A DNA stretch of 57,721 nucleotides, filler included, from Dugesia japonica (Eukaryota): assembly GCA_001938525.1 (NCBI GenBank). It is 6 parts of 6 records of this genome, joined end to end, with 100 filler letters (N's around TTAATTAATTAA, not from the genome) between each part and the next. Parts side by side here need not be neighbours in the genome. Positions count along the whole stretch, not along the records: positions 30,168 to 40,231 come from MQRL01599939.1; 5 more parts are not named here. One strand, written 5' to 3'. Positions 30,168 to 40,231 of the stretch are shown piece by piece. A program made the position numbers and the translations under genes. The stretch's first letter is position 1; every line of letters begins with the position of its first letter. The notes beneath the pieces were generated by a model. That model saw only the letters and a list, made by a program, of their open reading frames with translations, was not told the DNA's origin and made no database searches.

Positions 30168-30269
30168 TGATGAGTTTATTTCTTTTATATCTTAATTTAA
30201 TGTAAATTTAAGTAAATCAAATAAAAAGTTTCATTATTATACGGTCTATTATGATTAAAGGTTCCATTC

Positions 30270-30808
30270 AATCCCAACCAATCAGATCGATAATTAAAAT
30301 TTGGAATTTCCTAAAGAACACATTAAAAATTTAAATTAAAAATTTCACATTCTAACTTACATCCTGCTAATGACATTCAAAATAGACAACGACATACATC
30401 GATTAAAGAACATCATCTAGCGGCTCAATTATTCAAATAATATCGGATAGAAAATCGTTATTGCCATACGACAACCAGTTGGAATCAAGAGATAATTGTC
30501 AAAATTTGAAATTACCAATACCTTGATTGAAGCAGGAAATCAGCTGTCATTTCCATTAAATATCCACTACTAGGCTACTATAAATAGTCTACTATAAAGA
30601 AGCAGAAACATACAGAAATAAGAAATATTAATTTTTCGATTATTTGTGCTCACATCAAATCAGATCAAGATCAATCTAGTTCATTATTCAGAACAGGAAA
30701 ATAATAATAGTCATTAGTTATTTCATTATCACAGCGAAATTATCCTACAACCAGACAATTCAAGATCCAATTTTTTCAGTTCCAACCGTAGTCATCAATT
30801 AAGTATGT
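30270..30808 (+). promoter_or_regulatory. putative promoter/leader exon of cassette unit 1 (CCAAT, TATAAA, donor GTATGT at 30803)
   Basis: AACCAATCAG at ~30276, CTATAAATAG/CTATAAAG at ~30577-30600, GTATGT just before the T-rich spacer begins. Confidence 0.4.
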
Positions 30809-32014
30809 TATATATTGTTTTTATGTAATTATATGCAATTTTGTAATCTAATTTGATTTACTTTTTGTTTTTTATTGTCATTAAAAAATTATATGTTTTA
30901 TCTAATCATTATTTTGAGTTTTAAAGGTTTGACTTTATTATGATTAGCGTTTTAGTAAGACACTATAAGTTAGTAAGAGTACGCATATTATGAGTTAATA
31001 AATTATTAAACCACCAATTTTTATAAGAACTATCAATGAAACTACTATTTCTACTTATATTCGTATTATTATTATTATTATGATTATTATTATTATTATT
31101 ATCATTTTTTTTTATTATTGTTATTATTAATACCATTTTTAAATTATTATTATCGGCATTATGGTCATTACTATTATTCGTGATTATTATTACTATTATT
31201 ACTATTATTAGGAATACTATTAAGATTACTGACTTGAGATTATTGTTCTTGTCATTACTATNNNNNNNNNNNNNNNNNNNNNNNNNNNNNNNNNNNNNNN
31301 NNNNNNNNNNNNTTGATATTATTAATTAGCAATAGGACTATCATTAATACTGGAATTATTACTATGGTTAAACTTATCTTCATTTTAATAATATTAGTTT
31401 TACTTCTAGTTTATTAATCTGTATGATTATAGTTATTAGTACGAGATCTATCCCTTACTCATGTCATCAACATCGTCAGTATAATTACCATTAGATCTAT
31501 AGTCCTTTAAACCTATAATTATATTTAACATTATTAAAATCAGATACATTGTCATTCATCTATAATCACTACTGTTATTATAGTACTACCGTTGAATTTT
31601 TAAGAATATAAATTATTATTATTTATTCATTATCATAATATTCTATGTTTTTAGCTAATTGATATTTCTTTTATAATTTAACTAACTTATCAGTAACATA
31701 CAGCCATCATTAAATTGCGGTAACTATAGGTATACTTATATTACAATTTAATCAGTATATTTTACCATCCATACGATAACGCTCATAAGACTTACATAAA
31801 TGTGCTATTATGTTTCAAACTAATGTTTTTCATCACGAATACCCTTACCATAATTATAGCTTTATTCATTACATTACACTAAAACTCAAATATCAACTCT
31901 ATAAAATCAACTCGAAAATACCTTCACGAAATCTTTGTTGAGACTCACTCGTCTTATTTCATTATCGAGTAATGAAATCCAGATTAAGCACTATTTAATC
32001 TGATACTTTTAGAC

Positions 32015-32404
32015 ATGGACGAGAATTCACCACATAATATAGCTAACCAGCACCTGTTCCAGCTCAGACCAAGCCGAACCTTGGGAGCAGAGGTGCAAAT
32101 AGCAGCTAGCTTTGATTGGCAGTTAGCCACCACAACTAATTGGTCAAGAGTCTGTAAAGCTCTTCAAGAAAAAATATGAATGTTGGTGTTCGAGATGACC
32201 CAACTCCGTCGCCAGAATATTGAGTATACGTACCATTATAGAATCGTTACGGTTATTGTTAAATTCACCTATCATCCAACTATTGTACCTTGCAATAAGT
32301 ATCCGTGCTATTTTTCTAACAATAGATTAGTTTCACTGATAATCTTAGATACTTTTATAGTTCTGGACCCAATCACGGTTCATCACCATTATACAGGAAA
32401 CTAA
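32015..32404 (+). pseudogene. unknown small protein family X, copy 1 (in-frame TGA at 32177)
   Basis: MDENSPHNIANQHLFQLRPSRTLGAEVQIAASFDWQLATTTNWSRVCKALQEKI*MLVFEMTQLRRQNIEYT aligns without gaps to copy 2, with many synonymous differences; TTTTAG 2 nt before the ATG. Confidence 0.7.
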
Positions 32405-32472
32405 TTTGGAGTTATTTCTTTAGAGAATAAAGAAGTGCAGATTAAAACTAAATAATCTGTGAATTCTAGAAA

Positions 32473-32853
32473 ATGGACGAAAACGATCCACAAAACGTCG
32501 CCAATCAACACCTATCCCAGCTCCGACCCAGCAGAACCTTTGGAGACGAAGTACCAATTGCCGCCAGTTTCGATGGACAACTAGCTACTTAAGCAAATTG
32601 GTCCAGGGCATACCAAGCTATACAAGAAAATATTGGCATGCTCGTATTCGAAATGTCGCAGCTCAGGCGACAAAATATTGAATATACCCGGAGGAACTAT
32701 TAGAATCTGAAGCTAGATGCCGAAGTGAAGTGGCTCCGAACAGAAAACCGTCAACTGAGTGACCGCCTGCACAACCAACCATCAACATCCTACTCAGTTC
32801 CTCCTCCCAGAAAAATCCGAAAGATCTTCATTGACCTATCCGAAGAAAATTGA
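32473..32853 (+). pseudogene. unknown small protein family X, copy 2 (126 codons, two in-frame stops)
   Basis: MDENDPQNVANQHLSQLRPSRTFGDEVPIAASFDGQLAT*ANWSRAYQAIQENIGMLVFEMSQLRRQNIEYTRRNY*NLKLDAEVKWLRTENRQLSDRLHNQPSTSYSVPPPRKIRKIFIDLSEEN; absent from the ORF track. Confidence 0.75.
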
Positions 32854-33019
32854 TGAAACTGCAGATTAAACACTGAATTTATTGTATATTTAATGTAAAA
32901 TATTATACTATTATTATAAGACTTCTATCGTCGTCAGGAACCTAAATTACATGCAGATGGTGCGCTCATGCACTCTTAACGTCATGTAAGAGTCACCGAA
33001 GCTGCCATTAAGGCCAATA

Positions 33020-38005: not shown

Positions 38006-38069
<64 letters not shown>

Positions 38070-38230
38070 GTATTATTATGATTATTATTACTCCTATTAT
38101 TAATATATGATTACTATTACTATTATGATTAGGATTATCATCATTATTACCATTATCATTAAATTTAAAATAATTATTATTACAGGTATCGTTATCATTA
38201 TCAAGGTTGTTACTATTATTATATTCATTA
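37790..38230. repeat. (ATT)n microsatellite with a 30-bp higher-order unit (TTATTACCAGTATTATTATTxTGATTACTA x3)
   Basis: Direct inspection; source of the poly-Ile ORFs. Confidence 0.9.
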
Positions 38231-38485
38231 CCCGTGTCGCTATCCTTGTGTTATCAGTAATCATTATTAACAGATTTCCTAGTGTATTCATGTTTGTGAT
38301 CACTAAGTAGTTGGGTATTAATTCTATCATTAAGTAAATATCACTAAAAGTAACAATTATTAAACCTAGGAAGCTCGAGGACATCAGTTACTGTTATTAT
38401 TCATCATTATATTAATTTTATGCAAGAAATCCATAACCATGACAAGATCAAATTGTTTTTTTTTAAACTAAATCTGATTTAGGAC

Positions 38486-38671
38486 ATGCCGGGAGAGCTA
38501 CGGAAGGCACTGTGGGTAATATTGAAGCAACGAAAGCGTGTACCTCTCCGACAACTCATCGGTCACTTATTATTCCCTGAGTTAGTTGAGCACCCTGACG
38601 AGACTGATTTACAGTGTTTCGTCGAGATGTTCCCGCTGAATTTCAGGGTAGATATAGATGACGAAGACTGA
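38486..38671 (+). CDS. unknown 61-aa protein, family Y copy 2 (basic patch, DLQCFVE motif, acidic tail)
   Basis: Intact, GC-richer than its flanks, TTTAG 3 nt upstream, AATAAA at 38718, paralog at 34762. Confidence 0.7.
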   Translation: MPGELRKALWVILKQRKRVPLRQLIGHLLFPELVEHPDETDLQCFVEMFPLNFRVDIDDED

Positions 38672-38833
38672 TAACATTATTAAAATTCGATATTTCTGCC
38701 TGTTGTAGTTTCAGTAAAATAAATTATAAAACTGGTCGTTTTAGTATTTTCAGTTGAATTTCTAATTACTCTACACACTATGTATTATTTTTAAACTTTG
38801 GTTATAATCAATAAAGACCATTTTATTATTATA

Positions 38834-39232
38834 GTGGAACACAAGTGGGAGATTTTACTCGATCGTCGAACCGGTAGAACCATATTCAAGCGTTACAAAA
38901 ATCCACATAACCGTACCGCCGGAGTCCTAGTAGACAGATCCAACTTACCGACAACAGAAGCCGATGAAGAAAGGCAGTGGGATGCTACCGAGCGCCACGC
39001 CTTCTATGATTGGAAGGGGCCTAATAGGGCAAGAGCCGTCTACCATGCGGTCACGTCCACACACATAGACGCCAACGGTGAAACACAAGCCATCCTGACG
39101 TGGCAGAAAGGCCCATCGGTAGTGGGTCACACTACTAATCAGTTACCATCTTTTACTAATTTGAGTCCTTTCGTCGAAGACCATTTGTGGAGCATCCGCA
39201 ACACCGAAAGTGGCGGTAGTGTAGAGTTTTAG
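38834..39232 (+). CDS. unknown ~132-aa protein, family Z copy 2 (GTG where copy 1 has ATG; start uncertain)
   Basis: Open frame, GC-richer island, paralog at 35062, AATAAA at 39323. Confidence 0.7.
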   Translation: MEHKWEILLDRRTGRTIFKRYKNPHNRTAGVLVDRSNLPTTEADEERQWDATERHAFYDWKGPNRARAVYHAVTSTHIDANGETQAILTWQKGPSVVGHTTNQLPSFTNLSPFVEDHLWSIRNTESGGSVEF

Positions 39233-40231
39233 TGTTTTATTAATCTAACGTATATTCATTACTCCATTTTGTAACATATTACAAATTAAACCCTGAACTT
39301 ACAAGTAAAATTATTATATAAAAATAAATAAATAATTTTGTATACAGCCTAGAACAGATATGGACAATGTTTTACTTGAAGATTTTTATTTTGGGGATGC
39401 TGAAGGTGGTAGCTTACAAATAGCAATAATTTGATCCCTTTTCAAAACCTTATCAAACTGCTTATCAAAAGTTGGATTCTCAGTAGAAGATTTACACATC
39501 CCAAATGCAGAGTTGGTTTTTTTTCTTTTAAAACATTTAAGAAAAGGTATTATTTGGGAATGTTAAAACGGTCCTCGTTAGGACCACAATTCATGATCGA
39601 AAAGAAAAAAAAAATTTTTTATCGAAGAGACTACATTGTTTTGTTTTTTATTTAATTCTGTTAATAAATTATAATTAAATTTAATTAAAATTTGGTTTTG
39701 TAATCGATCTTCATTTGACAATTTTATATTACCATATTGTAAAAATTACCGAAACCGAAGTTTGACCTAATGTAATTTAGAAACAGAAAATAAATAGCTT
39801 TTCTACTCATGTATGAATCCTAGATTAAGTATTTTTACTATTATAAAGTAAAATTAAATTAAAATTTTTTTATGATCATTTGTTAAAATATATATTGTTT
39901 TCATTATCCACGATTTAGAATCTGGATATTGATTTTAGCTATTTTACATTTTTATTTGGAAATAGAAATAATTGAGTAAACAATGAAAATTAAATATTTA
40001 CTAATTGTATGAAGTTTGTTATCGTTATAATATAATCATATTATAATTCCGAAATAGTGTAAGGATATGTTTAGCAATAGAGTGATTGGTGTTATGATCG
40101 ATTTACAATGAGGTGTTCAACCATCTATATTGTACAGAACTTATTTGCTAATAGAAAATCATAGAAAATCAAAGGAAACGAATGAAAGAAAATTGTCAGA
40201 GTATACATAACAATCAAGCTTCAAATCAAAT

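Follow-up and report, generated by a model that had tools for sequence, protein, structure and literature searches.

A probable accessory region from a repetitive selfish element, with three units of predicted splicing, in the planarian Dugesia japonica

The stretch of DNA analysed here (the window) comprises 57,721 nucleotides (nt), filler included, from the genome of Dugesia japonica (assembly GCA_001938525.1), in which identical 100-nt artificial linkers (N44-TTAATTAATTAA-N44) at 10524-10623, 21028-21127, 30068-30167, 40232-40331 and 49069-49168 separate six unlinked scaffolds. One of these scaffolds, 30168..40231 (MQRL01599939.1), is 10 kilobases (kb) long, is isolated between two such linkers and has no physical flanks; sequence beyond its ends is physically unlinked. 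It contains a region of about 9 kb with three cassettes of candidate promoter, leader, splice donor, ATT-rich spacer and small genes, which we call X, Y and Z. On balance, we read this region as what remains, in decayed form, of the accessory genes of a large selfish element present in repeated copies; the element is probably a giant Gypsy of the Burro type, and splicing is predicted for its three internal units here. That it is the accessory region of some high-copy selfish element we consider likely, and that the carrier is of the Burro type, on circumstantial grounds, we hold to be about an even call. A sequence-only reading had already described the region (30168..39350), and all the features that it reported were found in place inside this single scaffold; the mini-exon acceptors, the split start codon of Z2, the twin hairpins of X and the mostly dead state of the ORFs described below were not part of it. 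All features of the scaffold given below lie on the plus strand.

The small open reading frames (ORFs) differ from their surroundings in composition. In a window of 28% G+C they have a GC of 0.44-0.50, in line with the GC-richer ORFs noted before, and their G+C at third codon positions (GC3) is 0.44-0.52, against 0.21-0.34 in seven other coding pieces of the window, some of them host-like genes, the others resembling Polinton, Gypsy or mariner elements. Comparison of the paralogs gave differences by codon position of 12/6/42 between X1 and X2 and of 23/18/55 between Z1 and Z2, with ratios of nonsynonymous to synonymous divergence (pN/pS) of 0.12 and 0.25, respectively, and of 0.46-0.51 between Y1 and Y2; pS comes to about 0.9, near saturation, in X, in Z and in the N-terminal part of Y, and to 0.62 in the C-terminal part of Y. 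These patterns mark X, Y and Z as genuine genes whose paralogs were under purifying selection in the past (pN/pS 0.12–0.51).

Four of the six ORFs are broken in this copy. X1 (32015..32230), a truncated gene that keeps the 5' part (72 codons), has a stop at 32177; X2 (32473..32853) has stops at 32590 and 32701; Y1 (34762..34939) carries a frameshift shortly before 34826; and Z1 (35062..35451), behind an acceptor AG that ends at 35055, has a stop at 35314 and homology to about 35397. Y2 (38486..38671) is an open ORF of 61 amino acids without a family, and Z2 (38835..39232) is an open frame that follows the AG at 38833-34 and lacks an ATG of its own. A possible extra small ORF at 39360..39566 (stop at 39432, GC 0.30) is doubtful. 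The small Y protein carries a basic patch and ends in an acidic tail.

Promoters 2 (33012..33257) and 3 (35944..36189) are homologous CCAAT–CCAAT–TATA modules, with 174 of 243 aligned nt identical (72%, z 23). Their CCAAT boxes (33014, 33133 and 33171; 36015, 36066 and 36104) include a pair located 73-75 and 35-37 nt upstream of TATAAA (33208 and 36139), and three CCAAT boxes within the 220 nt upstream of a TATAAA occur at only 3 of the 163 TATAAA sites of the window, two of which are these promoters. The candidate promoter 1 (30515..30600; CCAAT 30515, TATAAA 30579 and 30593) is weak and has no homology to promoters 2 and 3 (z 0.3-0.4). Cassettes 2 and 3 are old duplicates that share promoter, Y and Z, and cassette 1 is no paralog of theirs.

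The predicted leaders, whose starts were placed 28 nt past TATA for leader 1, extend over 30607..30802, 33236..33520 and 36167..36438. Leaders 1 and 2 are free of ATG; this absence is significant only in leader 2 (shuffle P about 0.005; P 0.07-0.29 for leader 1). The three consensus donors reported earlier, GTATGT at 30803, GTGAGT at 33521 and GTAAGT at 36439, are present. Since donor hexamers number 6 on the plus strand and 10 on the minus strand of the scaffold, their presence is weak evidence alone. A TT(T/G)CAG acceptor closes 18-23 nt before the donor at all three cassette donors but at just one of the 165 other donor-like sites counted over the two strands, a pattern that was significant under every CAG definition tried (p 2e-7 to 5e-4); the three donors were the choice of the earlier reader, made independently of it. 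The putative mini-exons are 30780..30802 (23 nt, after TTTTTTCAG), 33499..33520 (22 nt, or 13 nt if it starts at 33508, with CTAAT upstream) and 36421..36438 (18 nt, after TGTTGCAG). A C-to-T shift is also sharp at the donors, at the 99.9th, 94th and 96th percentile.

Behind the donors lie the ATT-rich spacers, described before as 1.2-2 kb long, which we predict to be introns: 30803..32012 (1,210 nt, with a 51-nt assembly gap inside), 33521..34736 (1,216 nt, with a 148-nt gap and acceptor candidates ending at 34724 and 34736) and 36439..38482 (2,044 nt, in which there are long arrays of (ATT)n and one gap of 50 nt). ATT is strand-biased in this scaffold (134 ATTATT against 21 AATAAT), the corresponding counts in the five other scaffolds being 18-46 against 18-29. 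A YAG stands 2, 3, 6 and 3 nt ahead of the ATG of X1, X2, Z1 and Y2, as reported, and the AATAAA or ATTAAA hexamers assigned to the six ORFs are all present: 32426 for X1, 32865 (ATTAAA) for X2, 34972 for Y1, 35453 for Z1, 38718 for Y2 and 39323 for Z2. The caveat that such signals are frequent in AT-rich DNA was borne out: a YAG lies just upstream of 18% of all ATGs, and AATAAA or ATTAAA lies within 130 nt downstream of 44% of arbitrary positions, so that either signal is weak evidence alone. Another GTGAGT at 36876, with a strong skew change, was observed inside predicted intron 3 and possibly marks a further exon.

The predicted junction at Z2 would have a particular consequence. The exon of donor 3 ends in A and TG follows the Z2 acceptor, so that joining them would give an ATG and an ORF of 132 amino acids; both other members of the Z family begin with M-E-x-K-W. 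Alternatively, Z2 may have lost its start codon by mutation. Short perfect hairpins were seen 3' of Z1 (35565-35585) and Z2 (39571-39586), the second with a sub-threshold match to the histone stem-loop (E 0.021).

Based on these features, we propose that the CCAAT/TATA promoter would drive a non-coding leader in each unit, and that the donor would skip the 1.2-2 kb, ATT-expanding intron and join either the first or the second ORF, yielding one protein per messenger RNA (mRNA). Each ORF would have its own poly(A) site, and when the first ORF is joined, polyadenylation would follow just after it; in the case of Z2, the start codon would arise from the splice junction. The acceptor 18-23 nt upstream of the donor would let RNA from a long terminal repeat (LTR) or from the previous cassette splice in and then hop to any ORF. 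The X, Y and Z proteins may be regulators of the element or of the host. In complex retroviruses and adenoviruses, short non-coding exons act in such splicing relays. The leader-to-ORF units of the sequence-only reading are thus kept as a prediction, in agreement with the promoter modules, the ATG-free leaders 1 and 2, the C-to-T shift, the selection on the genes and the repeat family, but with the details of the cassettes changed.

The acceptor ahead of each donor could instead be a site of spliced-leader trans-splicing, with outrons of 170-260 nt and an mRNA composed of spliced leader, mini-exon and ORF. Trans-splicing requires that no donor lie upstream of the acceptor, as stated in a passage of PMC8629364 that cites planarian spliced-leader papers, and leader 1, where no consensus donor precedes the acceptor, agrees with this requirement. 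Usable donors are present, however, in leader 2 (GTAATA 33422) and leader 3 (GTATGT 36198, GTAATT 36287), and leaders 1 and 2 are ATG-free, as would be expected if they were retained and scanned and not if they were discarded. We regard trans-splicing as unlikely; it concerns the mechanism only and is compatible with either carrier.

An AATAAA is located in leaders 2 and 3 (33424 and 36350), 216 and 211 nt past TATA and 97 and 89 nt ahead of the donor, a placement reminiscent of the 5' end of retroviruses, in which use of a premature poly(A) site is prevented by the donor. The same spacing fits a heap of old LTR-like remnants, in which promoters 2 and 3 would be decayed U3-R modules and the order of the parts would result from nested insertions and duplications, and the stepwise changes of DNA depth along the region, described below, point in that direction as well. 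Set against this are Y and then Z at intron distance behind both promoters and mini-exons at all three donors, and no primer-binding site was noticed on inspection by eye, which makes this explanation quite improbable in our judgement.

X1 and X2 had been interpreted as an ORF pair like Y and Z. This was not upheld: an intact coiled-coil X homolog of 130 amino acids from elsewhere (P0001; ENA, one member) aligns with X1 up to residue 72 only and has X2 as a full-length paralog. The remainder of the X1 ORF as delimited earlier (32231..32412, GC 0.32) is spacer-like. X1 and X2 are thus duplicate copies of one gene, the first of them truncated, with no analogy to the Y and Z pair. Ahead of each X acceptor stands a conserved twin hairpin, at 31956..32002 for X1 (z -3.5) and at 32414..32460 for X2 (z -3.7; acceptor AG ending at 32469), in which 33 of 34 cells pair and one change is compensatory; covariation between the two sequences failed to beat the shuffle control (235/500), and hairpins ahead of the Y and Z acceptors were not significant. 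Among the variant sites listed for relatives in DNA contigs, three fall in the X hairpin, all of them in loops, with 38 variant contigs at 31969 and 50 at 31992 in the hairpin of X1. AATAAA 32426 is unlikely to be the poly(A) signal of X1, because it lies inside the hairpin module common to both X upstream regions. The GCAGATTAAA motif of this module reappears at 32855-32872, just 3' of the X2 stop, where it carries the ATTAAA of X2. The idea of a hidden ORF ahead of X was rejected, since its score of 47 only equalled the shuffle maximum of 47.

Reads and contigs from DNA and RNA runs were compared with 31335-37530, a stretch without donor 1, Y2 and Z2. In the DNA run, 4,715 contigs aligned to the locus, part of this total being due to the ATT repeat, and 205 did so at an identity of at least 99%; contigs that match the locus itself have a depth of 7-12. 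Summed contig depth, which does not equal copy number, amounts to about 530-690 immediately before the X1 hairpin, jumps to about 21,000-40,000 at the hairpin, is about 165 on Y1 and Z1, and reaches about 2,600-3,200 in promoter 3 and in the stretch before it. Relative to the locus level this corresponds to about 2,000x over X1, whose relatives are very abundant, and about 15x over Y and Z, neither being a copy count. The region belongs to a repeat family, and its X part is very abundant. Between X2 and promoter 2, at 32940-33010, the summed depth of DNA contigs is very high (bin 78,347), several small inverted repeats occur, and RNA coverage, from reads of both strands, is the best seen anywhere except in the ATT repeat (about 31 in X16).

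Several results weigh against a spliced accessory region of a Burro-type element. From about a quarter of each of two raw RNA runs, 626 and 116 reads were obtained, none of them at least 99% alike; RNA depth on Y1 and Z1 is near zero in both; and none of the splice junctions proposed earlier is among the 15 joint RNA rows listed for 31335-37530, out of a longer set with 37 more joint rows and 934 loose-end rows. Leader 3 carries two ATGs in this copy, and the leaders and donor regions show no significant likeness between cassettes (z 0.3-2.9). The mini-exon pattern was defined post hoc and drops to p 0.04-0.2 with a bare YAG. Depth is uneven, about 20,000 over X and about 165 over Y and Z, so that the parts possibly move independently of one another. 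Within 30168..40231 we found no LTR and no gag, pol or env, and two published 20-nt BURRO1 primers had no match in the window at 3 mismatches, a search of low power. On the other side, both ATGs of leader 3 are absent from a related contig (25 differences) that reaches 36447, past the donor, and RNA coverage of this copy is near zero, so the missing junctions do not refute splicing. A lack of RNA would also fit the silencing of Burro/GYPSM1 by PIWI-interacting RNAs in wild-type animals that is described in part of PMC8532177. A further run, guessed to be RNA, has contigs that run unspliced through intron 2, and it is probably DNA.

A tandem array of a host lineage-specific gene family, partly pseudogenised and with introns in the 5' untranslated regions, would also have ordinary RNA polymerase II signals and genes under purifying selection, and A/T trinucleotide repeats are frequent near planarian tissue-specific promoters, as a passage of PMC10558129 reports. 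The base composition, however, differs from that of host-like genes, relatives of X are very abundant and diverse, four of the six genes are dead and the region is near-silent in the two RNA runs. We consider such an array improbable, and the possibility that the ORFs are internal exons of one ordinary host gene is likewise disfavoured.

Homologs were searched among proteins of near-equal length, a scope outside which fused forms fall. The alignment search with X gave one match out of two candidates (P0001), and the profile search with Z gave four matches, of which one is real (P0002) and three are long proteins that were set aside, two of them clearly repetitive and the third being P0003; X and Z thus have one unnamed homolog each. 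A search with the single Z2 sequence among near-length proteins gave none, as did one with a host-like gene, exact protein look-ups matched 0 of 8, and searches of Pfam, PDB sequences and the Atlas with the cassette proteins gave sub-threshold or generic coiled-coil matches only. Locus scans of viral, metagenome, prokaryote and phage collections gave no relatives, with one viral scan flagging one confirming stretch and no locus. The AlphaFold model of X is a long helix (predicted local distance difference test score, pLDDT, 64; predicted template modelling score, pTM, 0.29), and that of Z is unusable (pLDDT 39). An Rfam scan of the scaffold did not find the hammerhead ribozyme, whose motifs in pseudo-LTRs are a hallmark of Penelope-like/Terminon elements; its two matches up to E 5 are both below the gathering score, and neither is a ribozyme.

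The other scaffolds of the window contain Gypsy-, Polinton- and Penelope-like repeat debris, and its reverse transcriptase and integrase pieces sit only on these unlinked scaffolds. Two related, decayed Gypsy-like pol fragments lie at 6960-8559 and 11933-13964 (RVT_1 E 7e-26) on neighbouring unlinked scaffolds, and decayed Polinton-like pieces at 18131-18385 and 41000-43160 comprise an ATPase (Pox_A32 E 0.013) and a piece without Pfam match that we take to be polymerase-like. A PACRG-like host gene with two exons is present at 22977-23758 on the minus strand (ParcG E 2e-10), as is an open membrane-protein-like ORF of 150 amino acids at 56012-56464 on the minus strand, without homolog among near-length proteins. 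A degenerate satellite-like region of 31-63-nt units at 45680-48600 includes a GIY-YIG-like fragment (E 0.03) near 46519-46761.

If the region is from a Burro element, it would provide a base-level map of promoters, junctions and poly(A) sites for the non-polyprotein part of giant planarian retroelements, of whose organisation and expression the literature found gives no account. Our literature searches, which did not extend to the primary Burro paper (Grohme 2018) and its supplement, where these ORFs are possibly described, found no description of the architecture, and the predicted splicing design would be new relative to the literature found. The three small protein families without known relatives would be candidates for the element's handling of host silencing, and some genomic ATT microsatellites may expand inside introns of selfish elements. 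If the carrier is not Burro, the region would mark an unclassified high-copy element. The present copy is mostly dead. There is a small chance that it represents an undescribed large animal selfish element or endogenous virus with duplicated promoter cassettes, mini-exon relay splicing, three new protein families and a splice-made start codon.

The same transcription units could be carried by an undescribed large DNA element, an endogenous DNA virus or a Polinton or adintovirus, a carrier that we rate clearly below the Burro type, though as a serious alternative. Introns and internal poly(A) signals would fit a DNA element better than a genome passaged through RNA, the scaffold has no retroelement gene, and the Polinton-like pieces lie on unlinked scaffolds of the window, with their Pox_A32 match below the cut-off. 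Polinton/Maverick elements do occur in planarians according to a passage of PMC8532177, and they and the adintoviruses resemble the present region as large selfish elements with many ORFs. Unlike in them, neither a terminal inverted repeat nor a gene for a polymerase, integrase, ATPase or capsid was found in the 10 kb of the scaffold, the ends of the element lying outside. The GC3 of X, Y and Z (0.44-0.52) also differs from that of the Polinton-like pieces (0.27-0.28), no relatives were found in viral contigs, and Polintons are usually compact. Of the two known carriers suggested by the sequence-only reading, Polinton/adintovirus and Burro, the latter is favoured, on circumstantial grounds only.

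Adenovirus-type units share with the cassettes a leader joined to alternative terminal exons with separate poly(A) sites, but here there is no viral hallmark gene, gene density is low and the region is repeated in the host genome. Complex retroviruses, with the internal promoter of foamy viruses and the short non-coding exons of HIV, likewise use alternative splicing to make one small accessory protein per mRNA, their short exons relaying an upstream donor; they differ from the present region, which has three serial promoters, ATT introns of kilobase length and poly(A) signals behind every ORF, and in which no sequence homology to them was found. With Burro/GYPSM1, whose members have long LTRs at both ends, a total length above 30 kb and a gag-env-pol polyprotein of about 4,900 amino acids, the differences are that the 10-kb scaffold has neither LTR nor polyprotein, that none of the Burro accessory domains (MATH/TRAF, BIR, BCL2, ankyrin) was found in X, Y or Z, and that internal promoters, mini-exons and spliced accessory mRNAs are not described for Burro in the literature found, Grohme 2018 and its supplement standing apart from it. 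The likenesses are a very high copy number, putative for the present region, and some 10 kb of sequence beyond the polyprotein, together with the tandem repeats and accessory ORFs that Burro has outside ORF1 and that are present here too, a feature that is not specific to Burro. Passages of PMC6431247 describe for Burro thousands of copies, an internal region of up to 25 kb, an ORF1 of 4,873 amino acids, tandem repeats and accessory ORFs, and by our own arithmetic subtraction of ORF1 from the internal 25 kb leaves about 10 kb, which is the size of the present region.

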